The notes under the pieces are model-generated. The model did no database searches. It had not been told where the DNA came from and saw nothing but the letters and a program-made list of their open reading frames with translations. Positions 24,939-52,613 of a DNA stretch of 64,000 bases are shown here, piece after piece. Within the stretch, counting starts at the first letter, position 1. The number at the start of each line of letters is the position of its first letter. The stretch lies in IMG/VR virus record IMGVR_UViG_3300005534_000001, positions 28,528 through 92,527 of that record; one strand, given 5' to 3'. Position numbers and translations under genes: made by a program. The DNA is from a virus.

Positions 24939-25216
24939 TCCAACCTCTCCATGACCGCGTACTCGTTCGCCGAATCCAACAAGAGCAAGGTTTGATTGTG
25001 CTCACCGATGCTGAAAAGTCGCGGCGCTGTGAAGTCTTGGCCGTTGGCCCTGGAAGATGGGATGCAGAACGAGAAGAATTTAAGCCAATCCAAGTTAAGG
25101 CTGGACAGACTGTGATTGTTTCCCCGTCAATCAACAATGAGGCATGGACCGACATCATCCAGCGCGGTGATGAAGTTCTGATTCAGGAAGCGGATATCTT
25201 GGTGGTGTGCGGGTGA
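24935..25216 (+). CDS. groES: co-chaperonin GroES
   Basis: IQPLHDRVLVRR..GLIVL..EVLAVGPG..VKAG..V..LIQEADIL. Confidence 0.88.
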   Translation: MIQPLHDRVLVRRIQQEQGLIVLTDAEKSRRCEVLAVGPGRWDAEREEFKPIQVKAGQTVIVSPSINNEAWTDIIQRGDEVLIQEADILVVCG

Positions 25217-25375
25217 GGGCCACTGCTCGGCTCTGGATAAGCACCATAATCTTTTATCTTGTAATGTCCCATTTTTCCTACGAATTACACCCTAAGTCAT
25301 GGGTAACAATGGGCGTCATTGTTTATCTTTTCACAATATTTTCGGTTGGCATCATTGACAAACGGGAAAACTAAA

Positions 25376-25576
25376 ATGAGTTACGATTCTCCCGAAGTCA
25401 AAGCCGAAAACGACCAAGAGAGCAGACTTCGCTCACTCGCCGAAGGAATCATTGACAACAAGCACTTGCGCGAAATACTCAAAGAGACTCATCCAGCCTT
25501 GCGCCGTGGAGTATACGACAAATTGAAGCCGATGGTGAGTTTTAAAGCACAACCATATTTCTTTCTGATTCGATAA
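25376..25576 (+). CDS. hypothetical protein
   Basis: ORF abutting the portal start. Confidence 0.55.
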   Translation: MSYDSPEVKAENDQESRLRSLAEGIIDNKHLREILKETHPALRRGVYDKLKPMVSFKAQPYFFLIR

Positions 25577-27892
25577 ATGCCAGCCCTCGTAGAAGCCACA
25601 GGTAGCCCCAAGCAAAAAGAAATAGATGAAGAAGAGCAAGCCAGAATTGATCTGGATGCTTTTCTGACTCTTGCGCGCAAGCGTTTCTCTATTGCTGAAG
25701 AGGCTGAGGCAGAAAACCGCAAAGCTTCTCTTGAAGATCTGGAATTTTTCACTGGAGAGCAGTGGCCGAACGATGTCAAGGCCGCAAGAAGCGCCGATGG
25801 ACGCCCATGCCTCACAATCAATCGGCTCAAGGGCATAAAGAATCAAGTCACGAACGAGCAGAGGCAGCAGAGGCCAGCAATTCAAGTAAACCCTCGTGGA
25901 GACGGAGCCAGCACGGAGACCGCCGAAGTCTATCAAGGGATAATACGAGACATTGAGGTAAACTCTGACGCTGAAATTGCCTATGACAGTTCATTCGAAG
26001 GAATGGTCATCGGTGGATTCTCGTACTTCCGCGTTCTCACTGATTACCTTCCCGGATTAAGTTTTGAGCAGGAACTTAAGATCAAGCGGATCAAAAATCC
26101 CTTCACGGTTTACTTTGATCCAACCTGCATTGAACCTGATTATTCCGATGCAAACTGGGCCTTCATCATCGAAGACCTGTCGAAACAGGAATACAAAGCG
26201 CAGTTTCCTAAGTCTGAAGCCGCTTCGATGGTGGACTTCAGCAGTATTGGAGATCAATCGCCGGGATGGGCCGCAAAAGAGACAATTCGCATCGCTGAGT
26301 ACTTCCATGTTGAGCACGATACCCAGCCGATTGTGCTTCTTGATGATAATCGCGTGATGCTCAAAGAACATGCGCCAAAAGATGCGGTAATCGTTAAATC
26401 CAGAGACATGATAGTTCGCCGCGTGGTCTGGACAAAGATCAATGCCATCGAGAAATTGAAAGAGACTTCTTGGCTTGGCCAGTGGATACCGATTATCCCG
26501 GTACTCGGCGACGATCTGGACGTAAACGGGAAAAGGTACCTTGCTGGATTGATCAGAAACGCAAAAGACGCACAAAAGCAATACAACTACATGAACTCGG
26601 CGGCCACAGAGCAGATTGCATTGGCCACTAAAGCCCCATATTTGGCAGTGGAAGGCCAGATGGAAGGCTTTGAGAAAATGTGGGAACAGGCCAATGTCAG
26701 GAATTTCTCGTTCCTGTATTACAAGGCTGTTGATGTTCAAGGTAAACCCGCTCCTCCTCCGACACGCAATGCGGTAGAGCCACCTATTCAGGCAATGGCA
26801 GTGATGATCAGGCAGGCTGACAATGACCTGAAAAGTACTACAGGCATTTATGACGCATCTTTGGGGGAAAGAGGGCCAGACCAGTCAGGGAAGGCGATTC
26901 TAGCTCGACAGAAGCAGGGAGACGTTGCCACGCTCAACTTTAGCGACAATCTGGCGCGGTCGATTCGCTTTCTTGGCAAGCAATTGGTGGATTTGATTCC
27001 GAGAGTTTATACCGCAGCGCGAATCCAAAGAATCATCAAGCCAGATCAAACGGTTGATCATGTGGGAATATGGAATTCCTCAATGCATGATGCCGGTACC
27101 GACCCGCGCACATTGCCGGGAATGACCGATCCGTCAATCAAGAGGATCTTTGACATTGGTACAGGGCGCTACGATGTAACGGTATCGGTTGGGCCTTCAT
27201 ATCAGTCGAAGAGGCAGGAAGCAGTTTCTTCGCAACTTGCGCTCATTCAGGCTGACCCTGATATTTTGAAGGTCGCTGGCGATCTGCTAATCAGGAACAT
27301 GGATTGGCCGGGATCAAAAGAAATTGCTGACAGAGTAAAGAAGATGTTGCCTCCACAATTGCAAGACGATAATGGAGATCCAGCAGCGCAACTCCAGAAG
27401 GCGCAATCTCAACTTCAGCAACTAAATCAGCAGCATGAATTATTGACTCAGCATCTTACTGCTGCCAATGAAACGATCAAATCTAAGCAACAAGAGCAAG
27501 AGGCCAAGATGTCCATCGCCAAGGCTCAGATTGATGCCGATTTGATCAAGACGAAACTGGAACTTGAGAATAAATTGGCGATTGCCGAAATCACTACCAA
27601 GGCCCAAGACCGTCAGCAGAGAGCTCAATTAGAACAGGATATGTGGATGGCGCTGCACAATTCGGCGCACGATGCGGCAACTCAAGCGACAGATCAAACG
27701 CACGAAGCGGGAATGCAGACTGCCGACCAGCAGCATGAAGCACAACTTCAGCAAGCCCAACAGCAACATGAAGGCGAACAGGCCACCCAATCCCAAGGTG
27801 CAGAAGCAGACCAAGCTACTCAGGCCCAAGCAGCCGCACAACAGCAACAAGAATCGGCGCAAGCCGCAGAACCTCAAACTCCAGGAGAATAA
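25577..27892 (+). CDS. portal protein (P22 gp1-like)
   Basis: DLEFFTGEQW..GRPCLTIN, GLIRNAKDAQ..YN, SGKAILARQ, RYDVTVSVGPSY.S.RQE; Q-rich C-terminal barrel. Confidence 0.95.
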   Translation: MPALVEATGSPKQKEIDEEEQARIDLDAFLTLARKRFSIAEEAEAENRKASLEDLEFFTGEQWPNDVKAARSADGRPCLTINRLKGIKNQVTNEQRQQRPAIQVNPRGDGASTETAEVYQGIIRDIEVNSDAEIAYDSSFEGMVIGGFSYFRVLTDYLPGLSFEQELKIKRIKNPFTVYFDPTCIEPDYSDANWAFIIEDLSKQEYKAQFPKSEAASMVDFSSIGDQSPGWAAKETIRIAEYFHVEHDTQPIVLLDDNRVMLKEHAPKDAVIVKSRDMIVRRVVWTKINAIEKLKETSWLGQWIPIIPVLGDDLDVNGKRYLAGLIRNAKDAQKQYNYMNSAATEQIALATKAPYLAVEGQMEGFEKMWEQANVRNFSFLYYKAVDVQGKPAPPPTRNAVEPPIQAMAVMIRQADNDLKSTTGIYDASLGERGPDQSGKAILARQKQGDVATLNFSDNLARSIRFLGKQLVDLIPRVYTAARIQRIIKPDQTVDHVGIWNSSMHDAGTDPRTLPGMTDPSIKRIFDIGTGRYDVTVSVGPSYQSKRQEAVSSQLALIQADPDILKVAGDLLIRNMDWPGSKEIADRVKKMLPPQLQDDNGDPAAQLQKAQSQLQQLNQQHELLTQHLTAANETIKSKQQEQEAKMSIAKAQIDADLIKTKLELENKLAIAEITTKAQDRQQRAQLEQDMWMALHNSAHDAATQATDQTHEAGMQTADQQHEAQLQQAQQQHEGEQATQSQGAEADQATQAQAAAQQQQESAQAAEPQTPGE

Positions 27893-33705: not shown

Positions 33706-34908
33706 GTGAACACCCTTTTAACTTCCAGTATCATCACCAAAGAAGCCGTACGGGTGCTTGAGAACAATCTTACTCTGACCAAGCACATCAACCGCGACTA
33801 CGATGATCAATTCGCCAAAAAGGGCGCAGTCATCGGCAATACCATCAACGTACGCAAACCGCCCCGTTACATCGGTACCACTGGATCTGCGCTCTCAATT
33901 GAAGATGCGACCGAGACCAGCGTACCGTTGACACTCACCACTCAATTCCACGTGGACATCGCCTTCACCACGGTCGATTTGACCTTGAGCATCAACGATT
34001 TCAGCCGCCAATTCATCAAGCCTGCCATCGCGGCCATTGCCAACAAGGTAGACTTTGATGCCTCGTTGCTCTACCAGACGGTTTACAACACCATCGGCAC
34101 TCCGGGAACTACGCCCAACGCACTGCTGACTTATCTTCAGGCACAGCAGCGCTTGAACGAAGAAGCGGCTCCTTTGGATGAGCGCAGCCTGTGCATGACT
34201 CCTGCCATGAATGCTGCCATCGTGGACTCTCTCAAGGGATTGTTTCAGTCCTCTGAAAAAATCCGCGAACAGTACGAAAAGGGCATGATCGGGATGTCCA
34301 TTGGTCTTGAATGGTACATGGATCAGAACCTGCGCACCCATAAGATTGGGCCTCTTGGCGGTACACCTCTGGTAAGCGGTGCCGGACAGACAGGTACCTC
34401 TTTGCTGACCTCTGGATGGACGGCTGCTGCGGCTTCCCGGCTCAAAAAGGGCGATGTATTCACGATTGCCAATGTGAATGCGGTGAACCCTCAGAATCGG
34501 CAATCCACTGGCTCACTTCGCCAGTTTGTCGCGACGGCTGATTTCTCTTCGGCTGCGGATGGAACGGGAACCATTTCTATCTCGCCCGCTCTGACCGTTG
34601 CTGGCCCCTTCCAGACCGTGGATGCACTTCCGGCCAATGCCGCTGCAATCACTGTCTTTGGCGCGGCCAATACCCAAACTCCTCAAGGTCTCGTGTTCCA
34701 TCGGGACGCCTTCACGATGGGCGTTGCCGATCTCATGATGCCCCAGGGAGTCGATATGAACAACAGGGTATCGGACAAGCAACTTGGATTGAGCCTTCGC
34801 CTTGTCCGCGCCTACGACATCAACACGGACCGCCTGCCATGCCGCACAGACATCCTGTACGGTTTCGCGCCGATTTACCCGGAACTTTGCTGTAGGATAG
34901 CGGGATAG
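33706..34908 (+). CDS. major capsid protein (P22 coat/gp5-like)
   Basis: NTLLT..IT.EA..VLEN.L, GNTINVRKPPRY, RTDILYG; AGGAG RBS with GTG start. Confidence 0.95.
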   Translation: MNTLLTSSIITKEAVRVLENNLTLTKHINRDYDDQFAKKGAVIGNTINVRKPPRYIGTTGSALSIEDATETSVPLTLTTQFHVDIAFTTVDLTLSINDFSRQFIKPAIAAIANKVDFDASLLYQTVYNTIGTPGTTPNALLTYLQAQQRLNEEAAPLDERSLCMTPAMNAAIVDSLKGLFQSSEKIREQYEKGMIGMSIGLEWYMDQNLRTHKIGPLGGTPLVSGAGQTGTSLLTSGWTAAAASRLKKGDVFTIANVNAVNPQNRQSTGSLRQFVATADFSSAADGTGTISISPALTVAGPFQTVDALPANAAAITVFGAANTQTPQGLVFHRDAFTMGVADLMMPQGVDMNNRVSDKQLGLSLRLVRAYDINTDRLPCRTDILYGFAPIYPELCCRIAG

Positions 34909-46914: not shown

Positions 46915-49599
46915 ATGACCGAAACTCAACAGCCCCAGAACAGCGATCCTCCGGTTTACGTCTACAGCCCTCCCGATAAGGATGGGAAGCAGACGCTCGG
47001 CACCGTGCCAACGTCCCAACTGTCGGACGTTTTGAACAATGGAAAGGGATACAGAAAAGCCGTGATGATGACGGCTCCAGACGGGAAAACTAAAGGATGG
47101 GTACCTCCGACCAAGGTTACCGAACTGCTCAAACCGGAAAATGGGTACAAGATCGGTCCACCATCCGCAGTGCAAGAAGGGGCGATATCGAGATTTCTAA
47201 AGGGTGCTGGCGGTGATTTAGCAAATATGGGGGAAGATCTTGCTACAACCGCAATGCCCAACTTTGATAAAAATAATGCAACTTCATCTCTCGCGAATCA
47301 AAGCTGGCAAGACTTAACCAGCAACGAGGGCATTGGTGGCCCAGCGAATGTGGCATTGATGCCGCTTGCTAGGCTGATAAAGGGTGCAGCGAGGGCGCAA
47401 TACCAATCATCCGTAGACATGCAAGAGAAGGCATCAAAGGCGGCGGAGAAAGGCGACAACGCGGGAGTGATGATCAATTCAATCGGCGCAGGGTTGCCCC
47501 TGGTTGGCCAATTGATTAATGGAATTTACGAGCAGGCCGATTCGGGCGATACTGCCGGCGCAGCGGGTAAGGGCTTGGTCCGTGCAGCAATGGCCGCTAG
47601 TATGGCTCCAGAAGGGAGCGTAATACCAAACCCATTGCGCGCAACTGCAAATGCGGTCAATAAGATTATCCCCGCACCCAAACCGCCCTTAGCCCGCACT
47701 CTGCCAAATCTGAGTAGAGAATCAGCAGCCACAGCCACGCCTCATATTCAATCTGCGGCTCAAGACCTCGGAATTGATCTCACAAAAGAGCTTCCCGTTG
47801 ACCCAGAAACCGGACAAGCAATGACAACAGCAGATGCTGTCCGTTCAGCCGCCAAATTAGCAAAACACAAACTGATGCTCCATGCCGACCAATCCGCAGG
47901 CGAAGGACAGACATTCCACGACCTTCCGGAAGATGTGCAGCAAGGATATCGCGATCAGCTCAAGGCTATTTCAGAAGTTGAAAAAACGGTAGGAGATGCA
48001 CAAGCGCAAGCGGCCAAGAATACCAGTGCTCCCACTACTCGCGGCCAGGCTGCACTTGATGTCGCCAAGGGTGCTGGAAAGATTGCAATTGCCGATACGG
48101 CTGGAAGACTAATCCCAGGTGGAAGGCTTGTTGCCGATGCGGTCGGAGTTGGTGCCGGTGGATCTCAGGTGGTACGCGGCATCAAAGGATTGATTAGGCC
48201 CAACGCAGTAACCCCAGAGGTGCTCAATACGCGCCTACAGCAAGCATTCAGCCGCATGGGGCCATCCAATGTACCGGGAGTACCACCAGAGGCAGCAGAA
48301 GCCCCTCAGCCCTACCAGCCAGTAGAAGATACAGTAGTAGAGCATACCGGAATACCTCGTCCACCAGAAACGGCAGGCGGGGATGTAGGCGTGACTCCTG
48401 TTAATCAGAATCCCCGCACAGTTTCACAAGTGGCCGACTCTTCGCGCTCACCAGTCCAACAACCTCCAGAATGGCAAGGCCCGATTCCGCAAAGAGAGCC
48501 GATGGCAGTAGCCTCTCCTGTCAATAGGGCTCCAGTGCGCATTTCGGAACCATCGCAAGTTCCAATACAGGAGCAACCACAATGGCAGGGGCCAATACCT
48601 CAACGGGAACCAATCGGAGAACCCATAGCGCAATCTCAGCCTGCTCCAGAAGCACCCGCTAACACGCCGCAGCCTTTCAAGGCTAAGACTCCCGAAGCGG
48701 CATTGACTGAAACCCTTAAGAAAGCAGGCGTAGCGGCTCCAAAGGCCACGCAGCAAGGATTTGAGCATGGCGTACCCGGCTCAACTCTTCCGGTACGCGA
48801 CTTCGAAACATTCCCAGGAGCAGATACTGGAGAAAAAGCGGCTCTTCAATCACTTACTCACTATTCAATCAATGAATTGAGGGCCATTGCTCAGCAGAGG
48901 GGCATAAAAGTAGCAGCGGGAGATTCACACGTTGATCTTATTGGCAAAATCCATGACGATCTTACGCCCGAAGAAATCCAGCACTTTCACGATGCGGCCA
49001 CAGCCCAAGAAACAGCAAGACAGTCTCCGGTAGGCCCAGGCGTTCAGCATCCTGAAAATTTAGCAATTGCTAAACAGTTCTACGATTCCGCGAACAAACT
49101 TGAACAGGCAGGCGGCAAGCCTTATGACGTAGCAGCATATCGAACGGGAGCACGAGCGATTGAGGATCATCCCGAACCGATGTCCAAACTTGACCCAAAA
49201 GACATTCAGAAAATCCCAGGAATCGGCAAGAAGTTAGGGCAAGAGATTCAGAACCATCTGCATCCACCTGATGAGGATTTAACTGTAAAACTTCAGGAAT
49301 CAATTGATCAGGCGAAGGCAGGCCAGAGCCAAAAAGTAGGCGGCCTTAGCGATGCAGCAGACAATCAGGATATTGCCACAGCCAAAGCCACTCTAGGGCC
49401 AGATGCTTCAGTGAGTCACGTCTTACTTGAGGCTCAGAGATTGAAAGATATTCGCAATGGAGCAAATCTCAGAGGATCATCCGAAGATGCTTTTTATACT
49501 GCGAAGGCAAAGCAGGCTCTTGGAGATAAGGCTTCAGCAGAAGATATCGCAGCGAAGGCTAAAGAGTTGAAGGCGGCAAATCAACGCCCAAAGAAGTGA
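46915..49599 (+). CDS. large ejection protein (gp16-position) with HEH-like and PolX-N-terminal HhH domains
   Basis: Position; YSINELRAIAQQRGI..DLIGKI; IA..F...A..LE..G.....AAYR..A.AI...P......IQKIPGIGK. Confidence 0.7.
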   Translation: MTETQQPQNSDPPVYVYSPPDKDGKQTLGTVPTSQLSDVLNNGKGYRKAVMMTAPDGKTKGWVPPTKVTELLKPENGYKIGPPSAVQEGAISRFLKGAGGDLANMGEDLATTAMPNFDKNNATSSLANQSWQDLTSNEGIGGPANVALMPLARLIKGAARAQYQSSVDMQEKASKAAEKGDNAGVMINSIGAGLPLVGQLINGIYEQADSGDTAGAAGKGLVRAAMAASMAPEGSVIPNPLRATANAVNKIIPAPKPPLARTLPNLSRESAATATPHIQSAAQDLGIDLTKELPVDPETGQAMTTADAVRSAAKLAKHKLMLHADQSAGEGQTFHDLPEDVQQGYRDQLKAISEVEKTVGDAQAQAAKNTSAPTTRGQAALDVAKGAGKIAIADTAGRLIPGGRLVADAVGVGAGGSQVVRGIKGLIRPNAVTPEVLNTRLQQAFSRMGPSNVPGVPPEAAEAPQPYQPVEDTVVEHTGIPRPPETAGGDVGVTPVNQNPRTVSQVADSSRSPVQQPPEWQGPIPQREPMAVASPVNRAPVRISEPSQVPIQEQPQWQGPIPQREPIGEPIAQSQPAPEAPANTPQPFKAKTPEAALTETLKKAGVAAPKATQQGFEHGVPGSTLPVRDFETFPGADTGEKAALQSLTHYSINELRAIAQQRGIKVAAGDSHVDLIGKIHDDLTPEEIQHFHDAATAQETARQSPVGPGVQHPENLAIAKQFYDSANKLEQAGGKPYDVAAYRTGARAIEDHPEPMSKLDPKDIQKIPGIGKKLGQEIQNHLHPPDEDLTVKLQESIDQAKAGQSQKVGGLSDAADNQDIATAKATLGPDASVSHVLLEAQRLKDIRNGANLRGSSEDAFYTAKAKQALGDKASAEDIAAKAKELKAANQRPKK

Positions 49600-51539: not shown

Positions 51540-51613
51540 TGGTCGGGCTGGTCGTAATCGAAACGACGTCTTACGATCCCAAATCGTAGGCTTGACCTTC
51601 CAGCTACAGCCCG
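51540..51613 (-). tRNA. tRNA-Pro(TGG)
   Basis: Manual cloverleaf CGGGCTG..TACGA-TTTGGGA-TCGTA..GTCGT-TTCGATT-ACGAC CAGCCCG A CCA. Confidence 0.9.
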
Positions 51614-51651
51614 ACATTGCCGATTACCGACTTACGTAATCGGGTAATTCA

Positions 51652-51727
51652 TGGTGGACCCGGCGAGTTCCGCCCTCGCTGCCTCCTGATTGCAAAACAG
51701 GCGCTCTCCTAATTGAGCTACGAGCCC
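51652..51727 (-). tRNA. tRNA-Ala(TGC)
   Basis: G3:U70 pair, loop TTTGCAA, encoded CCA; atypical T-loop GGCGGAA. Confidence 0.85.
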
Positions 51728-51737
51728 ACATTCGAAT

Positions 51738-51813
51738 TGGAGCCGAGAGTCGGAATTGCACCAACGACATCTCCTTTACAAGAGGAGCGCTCTACTGTCT
51801 GAGCTATCCCGGC
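51738..51813 (-). tRNA. tRNA-Thr(TGT)
   Basis: GCCGGGA acceptor, CTCCT-CTTGTAA-AGGAG, T-loop TGCAATT, CCA. Confidence 0.9.
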
Positions 51814-51820
51814 AAAACAT

Positions 51821-51893
51821 TGGCGGCCAAAAAGCTGGCAAACAACCTCACGTCATGGAATTTCAGGTTCCATTCCGTATTCGCGATCTGCCC
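51821..51893 (-). ncRNA. degenerate tRNA-like element (pseudo-tRNA, TGA in loop)
   Basis: GGGCAGA/TTTGGCC-G-CCA acceptor-like stem, ATGGAA-CCTGAAA-TTCCAT arm, weak T arm, no proper D arm. Confidence 0.5.
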
Positions 51894-51900
51894 GCCAAAA

Positions 51901-51994
51901 TGGAGGAGAGTGCAGGATTTGCACCCGCGTATGCCGGGTGCTCCGACATTCGCCAGCTTTCAAGGCTGGTGCCTTACTACTCGGCCAACTCTCC
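51901..51994 (-). tRNA. tRNA-Ser(TGA)
   Basis: CCAGC-CTTGAAA-GCTGG, long variable arm, T-loop TGCAAAT, CCA. Confidence 0.9.
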
Positions 51995-52249
51995 AAACTC
52001 TACTGGAAACCTAAACCTCTGTTTGTGCTGGTTCCCGATGTGATTACCTTGGCAAATGTCACAGAAATAAATACAGACCATGCCGCCCTGTTTTGGCAAT
52101 TGCTCTGCCGTGAGCATCGCTGCCAAGAAATTCTGATAGCTAAATTTCCCAATACACCCTCTGACATGCCGTGCGCGAGTCTCGTCCTTAGCTTCAGGAT
52201 GCCGCTCTTTCCAATCATCGTATACTCGCCGCCACATTTTCTTGGACAT
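51977..52249 (-). CDS. Zn-finger phage protein (C.GK..Y...Y.C..C...H.G)
   Basis: Motif; 3' end overlaps the 5' 18 nt of tRNA-Ser. Confidence 0.6.
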   Translation of the reverse strand: MSKKMWRRVYDDWKERHPEAKDETRARHVRGCIGKFSYQNFLAAMLTAEQLPKQGGMVCIYFCDICQGNHIGNQHKQRFRFPVEFGELAE

Positions 52250-52307: not shown

Positions 52308-52613
52308 CTACATGGAAATACCCGCCGATGGCGTGGCTGACGATGCCGGGGCTGTAGCAATGAAGTTCACAGGCAGAAGTATTCCACAGCAGCACAAAGA
52401 AGTCAATCCCGATTTTTGTCGGCCATAATCTTGAGCAGTTTCCTGAAGTGCGCAGATGTCTCCAGAGCAATCCGGTTCGGCTACATGGTTCCCGCAATGA
52501 CAGGCGTAACAGTGCCCGTATTTTGGATCGTGGCTGCACAGGGTACAGAAGCACATTCTTGCGCCTGATTTATCAAGCAGGTCGCAGAGTTCTTTGAATG
52601 GATCTTTGGTCAT
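52308..52613 (-). CDS. Cys-rich hypothetical protein
   Basis: Multiple C/H motifs; ATGA overlap. Confidence 0.45.
   Translation of the reverse strand: MTKDPFKELCDLLDKSGARMCFCTLCSHDPKYGHCYACHCGNHVAEPDCSGDICALQETAQDYGRQKSGLTSLCCCGILLPVNFIATAPASSATPSAGISM

Follow-up and report, generated by a model that had tools for sequence, protein, structure and literature searches.

Why phages carry tRNA genes is a question now fifty years old, with codon supply set against escape from defences that cut tRNAs. It is raised here by a cluster of four tRNA genes in the virus record IMGVR_UViG_3300005534_000001, of which we analysed a stretch of 64,000 nucleotides (the window, bases 28528-92527 of the record, to which all coordinates below refer unless genome positions are stated). 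The four anticodons are UGA, UGU, UGC and UGG, for Ser, Thr, Ala and Pro. Why does this phage carry these four, and no others? We read the quartet as a set of decoders for the codons of these four amino acids, supplied on demand, a reading that we hold with about as much doubt as confidence. In our view its members belong together functionally and were not assembled by chance, because three features concern the same class of codons: the tRNA set itself, a codon run with a switchable terminator upstream of it, and the avoidance of NCA codons in the coat gene.

Identity and completeness of the tRNA quartet

The four genes lie on the minus strand and all score above the gathering score of 29 for the Rfam family RF00005: tRNA-Ser(UGA) at 51901..51994 (56.3 bits), tRNA-Thr(UGU) at 51738..51813 (60.2 bits), tRNA-Ala(UGC) at 51652..51727 with its CCA (Rfam match 51655-51727, 47.5 bits) and tRNA-Pro(UGG) at 51540..51613 (54.8 bits). 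ARAGORN recovered three of them, tRNA-Ala being found through Rfam only, probably owing to the T-loop GGCGGAA and the U31.U39 mismatch of this gene. The gene at 51655-51727 has the anticodon loop UUUGCAA (UGC), the pair G3:U70 and A73, and is therefore a tRNA-Ala. C1:G72, A73, G35-G36 and a canonical T-loop (UUCGAUU) are found in tRNA-Pro and G1:C72, C2:G71 and U73 in tRNA-Thr, while tRNA-Ser is a class II tRNA with a long variable arm and U73, as opposed to the G73 of its counterpart in the candidate host (a tentative assignment to Acidobacteriaceae, see below). The identity elements match the amino acid implied by the anticodon in all four genes, and CCA can be read in the sequence of each (4/4). 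By these features the four genes are predicted to be working elongator tRNAs.

The original prediction, made from the letters of the window alone, had described four intact tRNAs, Pro(TGG), Ala(TGC), Thr(TGT) and Ser(TGA), with U34-G35 in common and no other tRNA class in the window. This description stands, and it extends to the whole genome. The window belongs to a complete record of 92,527 bp with direct terminal repeats, in which the RF00005 search and ARAGORN gave no further credible tRNA; a relaxed ARAGORN run added a single 90-nt call (genome 455-544), which is without Rfam support. The worry that many other tRNAs elsewhere in the genome might make the quartet unremarkable is thereby removed. 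The quartet is the entire tRNA set of the phage and consists of exactly the four UGN anticodons. If four were drawn from the 12 U34 anticodon types of the candidate host, exactly this set would come up by chance once in 495 draws, a figure insufficient by itself to exclude chance because a very large number of windows was read. It is the codon run with its attenuator-like leader, together with the avoidance of NCA in the coat gene, that argues against a chance set.

A codon run and an attenuator-like leader upstream of the tRNA genes

Upstream of the cluster by 329 nt, and on the same strand, there is a run of 12 consecutive NCN codons, ATAPASSATPSA (52323..52358, minus strand). It encodes exclusively Ala, Thr, Pro and Ser, which are the amino acids of the four tRNAs, and is made up of ACA, GCA, TCA and CCA (one each), five NCG codons, two GCC and one GCT. 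This is the longest NCN stretch over the six frames of the 92.5 kb genome (the runners-up have 11, 9 and 9 codons) and the longest stretch of Ala, Pro, Ser and Thr in any called protein (next, 9 residues). The chance that the longest run would lie on the correct strand and no more than 400 nt upstream of the cluster is ~0.002. The run is located in the C-terminal tail of a Cys-rich open reading frame of 101 amino acids (ORF101, 52308..52613, minus strand), whose C-terminus reads NFI-ATAPASSATPSA-GISM-stop; the codons following the run are GGT ATT TCC ATG TAG, so that it ends four codons ahead of the stop. ORF101 has a single homologue, to which its first ~55 residues, the Cys-rich N-terminal part, are 76% identical; past that point the two proteins are unrelated, and therefore the tail that bears the run is not a conserved part of the protein. 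No relatives of ORF101 were found in IMG/VR. As to the protein itself, it has CxC, CxxC and HCYACHC motifs and belongs to no known family.

From this run onwards in the direction of the tRNA genes, the region 52360-52250 looks, in folding models, to have the layout and the logic of a leader-peptide attenuator. The whole leader (52372-52250, minus strand) folds at -48.2 kcal/mol (z -4.9) and contains, on the same strand, a candidate 1:2 hairpin in which the run pairs with region 2 (52360-52296; -26.5 kcal/mol, z -2.4, 3/200 shuffles), a candidate 2:3 antiterminator with a 12-bp helix (52313-52268; -19.3 kcal/mol, z -4.5, 0/200 shuffles) and a 3:4 intrinsic terminator region (52292-52250; -18.2 kcal/mol, z -5.2). 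The terminator hairpin (52287-52255) starts 20 nt past the stop codon and has a stem of 13 bp followed by a U-run. A stricter scan for hairpins with a T-run returned five sites genome-wide and missed this one, since its T-run is interrupted. The 2:3 helix joins the 5' arm of the terminator to the segment made up of the last sense codon, the stop and the 9 nt after it (52312-52301). This helix and the 3:4 terminator are mutually exclusive and of roughly equal stability. Pairing with the terminator arm as good or better was found in 10 of 2000 shuffled sequences and in one of 954 genomic 35-mers. In a model with a ribosome footprint on the nascent transcript, the antiterminator stayed intact wherever in the 12-codon run the A site was placed, and was lost once the A site reached either of the last two sense codons or the stop.

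The interval between the terminator and tRNA-Ser contains no sigma-70-like promoter match. It is occupied by an open reading frame of 90 amino acids (ORF90, 51977..52249, minus strand), with its stop codon inside the tRNA-Ser gene and a weak match to phrog_15216 (E 3e-4); its matches in the Atlas are all unnamed viral clusters. In the model, ORF90 would be co-transcribed and co-regulated with the tRNAs. Its product is Cys-rich, carries a CDIC motif and falls in no known family.

Codon usage in the phage and in candidate hosts

The phage has a G+C content of 50.5% (52.5% at third codon positions, GC3) compared with 55-63% in the candidate hosts, and relative to them it over-uses every codon that ends in A or T. 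NCA codons amount to 7.4% of the phage codons vs 3.3-4.8% in the candidate hosts, and NCN codons as a whole are enriched in the late genes (28.7%) over the early ones (21.6%). The idea that the tRNAs supply NCA codons, advanced in the original prediction, is thus borne out in that NCA is used about twice as much as in candidate hosts and NCN is late-enriched, but not as far as specificity goes: GGA, GTA, CAA, AAA and GAA are over-used to at least the same degree. The NCA excess is not special, and therefore plain compensation explains the U34 of the four tRNAs but not their G35. The same prediction had noted NCA as frequent in the fibre and ejection genes, and NCA does make up 26-37% of the NCN codons of the fibre, spike and ejection genes.

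The evidence specific to the codon class lies, rather than in the overall excess, in the codon run with its attenuator-like structures and in the coat gene (33706-34908, plus strand; GC3 0.63 vs 0.525 for the genome). A coat gene is expected to be under the strongest translational selection, and this one has the lowest NCA/NCN share among the 40 genes of at least 200 codons: 12 of 122 NCN codons (10%) vs 1271 of 4301 (30%) elsewhere (Fisher p 4e-7). GGA (10/29) and GTA (7/23) are not depleted, and within the gene the difference between NCA and GGA+GTA has a p of 6e-4. In candidate hosts, the operons for ribosomal proteins show no such selectivity, NCA, GGA and GTA all being avoided there, and therefore the NCA-specific pattern is the phage's own. 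Decoding of NCA looks to be specifically limiting in the infected cell. In the same coat gene CTA, CGA and AGA are unused and GAA is at its normal level.

The clusters of tRNA genes in phages have been explained by codon compensation, for example in the tRNA regions of T4 and T5 (PMC10264068, PMC11025619). The quartet resembles such clusters in its tandem, co-oriented genes with an encoded CCA, in the lytic type of the phage genome and in offering U34 isoacceptors for codons used more by the phage than by its likely host. It differs from them in covering one column of the genetic code (NCN) and not the most over-used codons, in being the complete set of the phage, and in that the most expressed gene here avoids the codons concerned. 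Ordinary compensation could still suffice if the NCN column, the tail rich in Ala, Pro, Ser and Thr and the terminator were coincidences devoid of regulatory meaning. The lower G+C of the phage and its across-the-board preference for A- and T-ending codons suit this explanation, as does the occurrence of quite different tRNA sets at the same slot in distant phages that share its SNF2 helicase (see below); a 1-in-500 set is also to be expected somewhere among very many windows, and in eight other loci with small tRNA sets we found no convincing case of a matched codon run ahead of the tRNAs. It has to accept, however, three separate low-probability features that fall on the same codon class (the position of the run, ~0.002; the complementarity to the terminator arm, 0.001-0.005; the coat gene, p 4e-7), and compensation would have favoured tRNAs such as Gln-UUG, Lys-UUU and Gly-UCC at least equally. 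We consider it unlikely that compensation and coincidence are the whole story, although they keep a real share of the probability.

Candidate host and modification of U34

The assignment of the host to Acidobacteriaceae is tentative and was made because of the named cellular matches of the phage DnaB and the soil source. Among the best 120 DnaB matches, the named cellular proteins were all from Acidobacteriota, at 35-38% identity (Pseudacidobacterium, Acidipila, Angelobacter, Terriglobales and Vicinamibacterales), and the sole sequencing run that contains the stretch is a DNA run from a soil metagenome, probably the source sample. A first scan of genome contigs with the phage DnaB gave no match, helicase matches named as Myxococcota were short contigs from genomes assembled from metagenomes, and the coat protein gave no prophage support in 401 Acidobacteriota genomes, where matches were partial and of 29-48%. 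We also considered the phage tRNAs as recent copies of Acidobacteriaceae genes and rejected this, only conserved stretches of 40-50 nt being found to match.

A complete Acidobacteriaceae genome used for comparison has 45 distinct tRNA sequences with canonical D- and T-loops, including all four UGN species, and one gene per anticodon except for three CAU tRNAs. For Ala, Pro and Ser, the UGN tRNAs of this candidate host have the same 7-nt anticodon loop as those of the phage, and for Thr the difference is limited to position 32. The anticodon stems of all four differ, which is what would be expected of unrelated sequences.

The original prediction had also started from the modification of U34, the four isoacceptors being those that carry mcmo5U34 in E. 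coli. The xo5U34 pathway of E. coli is documented (PMC13602947). The anticodons of the phage (UGC, UGA, UGG and UGU) are identical to those of the mcmo5U set of that bacterium. According to a study by Sakai et al. in 2016, E. coli reportedly has mcmo5U in Ala1, Ser1, Pro3 and Thr4, and cmo5U in Leu3 and Val1. In the candidate-host group, by contrast, none of five Acidobacteriaceae genomes had CmoB, CmoA or TrhO over the curated cut-offs of the models TIGR00452, TIGR00740 and PF17773, all of them positive in control genomes; this result bears on the phage only if its host is of that group. So the premise is sound as regards E. coli, but probably does not apply in the candidate-host group, and the overlap with the mcmo5U set probably reflects the four NCN family boxes.

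Non-canonical elbows and structured spacers

A canonical elbow, that is G18-G19 together with U54-U55-C56, is present in tRNA-Pro alone, the other three of the four being non-canonical. In tRNA-Ser, A18 replaces G18 in the D-loop and G55 replaces U55 in the T-loop (UGCAAAU), and the same two changes appear in tRNA-Thr, with the D-loop AGACAGUA (A18) and the T-loop UGCAAUU (G55). Positions 18 and 55 normally form a tertiary pair at the tRNA elbow, and because of this the paired A18/G55 change in the two sequences looks compensated rather than decayed. tRNA-Ala keeps G18-G19, but of the consensus its T-loop retains only C56 and R57. The U31.U39 mismatch leaves it with an anticodon stem of 4 bp, a length reported for 5.6% of bacterial tRNAs and thus unremarkable in itself (PMC13092985). 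The tRNAs of the candidate host are canonical at the elbow in 45 of 45 cases, and among ~115 tRNAs of other phage loci nearly every one is canonical there too; one Phe tRNA (L120/L202) also has G55.

Such elbows bring up the other side of the old question. A host or a resident element might deplete or cut UGN tRNAs as a class, as the original prediction had also proposed; the phage copies with altered elbows would then be poor substrates and the attenuator a sensor of depletion. There are precedents for attack on tRNAs rescued by phage tRNAs, namely the tRNA-Lys of T5 against AriB of PARIS (PMC11464382), phage tRNAs against retron effectors (PMC11555353) and escape through mutation of the anticodon loop (PMC10264068). 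Like the nuclease-resistant tRNAs of these phages (PMC11464382, PMC11555353), the quartet consists of the phage's own isoacceptor copies, structurally unlike the host tRNAs, and three of its four elbows set it apart both from the candidate host and from nearly all other phage tRNAs examined. A sensor of slow NCN decoding would suit a conditional shortage, and the coat gene is host-like in its NCA share and phage-like in GGA and GTA, whereas candidate-host ribosomal operons avoid all three. On the other hand, literature searches turned up neither a nuclease nor a defence system with UGN or (m)cmo5U/xo5U tRNAs as its target, and a matching defence is not known. Unlike in the precedents, the isoacceptors here are four and have two anticodon bases in common. 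The changes are also in the wrong place for the published cases: they affect the elbow formed by the D- and T-loops and not the anticodon stem-loop that is altered in published escape variants, and in Ala, Pro and Ser the anticodon loop is the same as in a candidate host, with Thr different at position 32 only. With no CmoA, CmoB or TrhO over cut-off in candidate hosts, the four tRNAs are unlikely to have (m)cmo5U as a common mark there, and we identified no tRNA repair or anti-nuclease gene in the window. Counter-defence is, in our opinion, unlikely, but it deserves to be kept in mind. A more elaborate version would make of the cassette an emergency kit, in which a sensor of stalling at Ala, Thr, Pro and Ser codons detects the class-wide loss of UGN tRNAs caused by a putative host system and turns on four tRNAs that would escape through their elbows (A18/G55 and GGCGGAA) and, each reading its whole NCN box, would restore the full column of the code; this we regard as clearly improbable.

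Two of the spacers within the cluster are structured. The 87-nt spacer between tRNA-Ser and tRNA-Thr (51814..51900, minus strand; -31.9 kcal/mol, z -3.2) is closed by a stem and contains a 6-bp hairpin whose 7-nt loop is CCUGAAA, and the one between tRNA-Ala and tRNA-Pro (51614..51651, minus strand; -11.2 kcal/mol, z -2.4) has an 8-bp hairpin. The loop CCUGAAA is that of the Ser anticodon with C33. A decayed fifth tRNA was considered for the 87-nt spacer and rejected, since the spacer has no RF00005 match at E<=1 and is not homologous to any of the four tRNAs. It may be a relic, serve in processing or mimic an anticodon arm. These two spacers and the degenerate T-loop of tRNA-Ala are what might be invoked for a role other than decoding, whether as integration targets, as processing signals of a polycistronic transcript or as the origin of small RNAs derived from tRNAs. 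Against such a role, all four genes have an intact cloverleaf, the correct identity elements and an encoded CCA, terminal repeats are present in the genome, no integrase was seen among the proteins scanned, and any such role would leave a set defined by its anticodons unexplained. We find it very improbable, close to negligible.

A model of on-demand supply

The reading that we prefer, on-demand supply of decoders, can be set out as follows. tRNAs with U34-G35 read NCA and NCG by normal wobble, and each of the four probably reads its whole family box, given the strong central G:C pair. Between them the four would cover the 16 codons of the NCN column, for Ser, Thr, Ala and Pro, to which about one phage codon in four belongs. 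Transcription coming from the replication-gene operon upstream would meet the intrinsic terminator before the cassette of ORF90 and the tRNA genes, while ribosomes translate the 12 consecutive Ala, Thr, Pro and Ser codons immediately ahead of it. If a ribosome stalls on the run, the stretch at the stop codon and directly behind it would remain free and form the antiterminator with the 5' arm of the terminator; RNA polymerase would then continue into ORF90 and the four tRNA genes. If the ribosome reaches the stop, that stretch would be covered, the terminator would form and the cassette would stay off. The purpose of the arrangement would be to keep NCN codons, and above all NCA, readable in a host where they are limiting. 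That the attenuator works, and that the limitation comes from supply rather than from attack, is in both cases what we infer.

The leader-peptide transcription attenuators of amino-acid operons, such as trpL, hisL and the multivalent thrL and ilvL, are the closest parallel that we can draw. The likeness extends to a regulatory codon run a few codons before the stop, to regions 1:2, 2:3 and 3:4 with exclusive 2:3 and 3:4 helices of similar stability, to an intrinsic terminator with a U-run and, in the case of thrL and ilvL, to the sensing of several amino acids at once. The phage candidate differs in that it gates tRNA genes and not biosynthetic enzymes. It is phage-borne and predicted from sequence, and its sensing frame is either the tail of a 101-codon gene or a putative mini-ORF of 20 codons that opens with an in-frame GTG.

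Several observations weigh against this model. Starting with the switch, the equilibrium fold of the full-length leader is always the terminator, even when ribosome masks are included; the model consequently depends on co-transcriptional kinetics, and the two states are separated by the nascent-transcript model only. The evidence for switching is moreover computational and comes from a single genome. The terminator is symmetrical and could merely separate converging transcription units, and the tRNAs could be driven by a type of promoter invisible to our scan. As to the sensing frame, the tail of a gene of this size is unlike the classic short leader, and Ala/Pro/Ser/Thr-rich runs are common low-complexity linkers in proteins. 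NCA and NCG account for nine of the 12 codons of the run, not significantly above the 53% of the genome. A weak sigma-70-like promoter match (TTGACT-17-AATACT with TG; 52378..52406, minus strand) directly precedes the GTG of the mini-ORF, but with five such sites in the region vs 4.0 expected it is not significant, and the mini-ORF has no visible ribosome-binding site. Regarding codon usage, the excess over candidate hosts for CAA, AAA, GAA and GGA is equal to or greater than that for NCA, the contrast in the coat gene rests on one gene with small GGA and GTA counts, and the scaffold gene shows no avoidance of NCA. Finally, the identity of the host is uncertain.

Genomic context and relatives

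The phage resembles P22 in its coat, portal, scaffold and head-closure proteins, whose best matches are only 40-53% identical and belong to phages of ~37 kb. The minus-strand neighbours of the tRNAs comprise two SNF2/DEAD helicases, DNA methylases, DnaB, a YqaJ exonuclease and PAPS-reductase-like proteins. The tRNAs come last in the replication operon that these genes form, which is read leftward, and they face the end of the late operon, read rightward. In the latter, an 894-amino-acid late protein (46915-49599, plus strand) in the ejection or tail gene region has an HHH_8 helix-hairpin-helix DNA-binding domain at residues 714-781. Two PAPS-reductase/PP-loop proteins, DndC- or QueC-like (genome 12703-13698, L081, and 25121-26218, L082), are near several DNA methylases and a DUF5131 protein, a group that may constitute a DNA-modification module.

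No close relative was found in IMG/VR or in the JGI metagenomes. A search with the coat protein retrieved 80 loci, all at 53% identity or less, and none of the 37 longer ones that were scanned had a tRNA. The SNF2 helicase as a single query gave no match in IMG/VR; searched as an alignment it retrieved 80 IMG/VR and 80 metagenome loci (48-61% identity) with two to four genes in common and with different tRNA sets or no tRNAs. Exact and gapped DNA patterns of the Ala, Ser and Thr genes had no match in IMG/VR either. Closer relatives were seen as proteins only, in ENA/Logan contigs (helicase at up to 68% and DnaB at up to 65% identity). The distant phages with the SNF2 helicase often have tRNAs in the same slot, directly downstream of the helicase and on the same strand (e.g., L097, L108, L137, L152 and L153), and the sets found there go from Met, Met+Thr or Met+Gly+Ser+Ser to arrays of 26-31. 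This suggests that the slot downstream of the helicase is a conserved insertion site for tRNA cargo.

Implications

The locus offers a very small and clean test case for the role of phage tRNAs, with four tRNAs, four amino acids and one sensing codon run. The paired A18/G55 change in two of its tRNAs amounts to a natural experiment on the tRNA elbow. If the attenuator works, leader-peptide attenuation would be found to regulate also tRNA genes, according to translational demand, and the decoding of NCN codons would be marked as a specific weak point of this phage-host pair.

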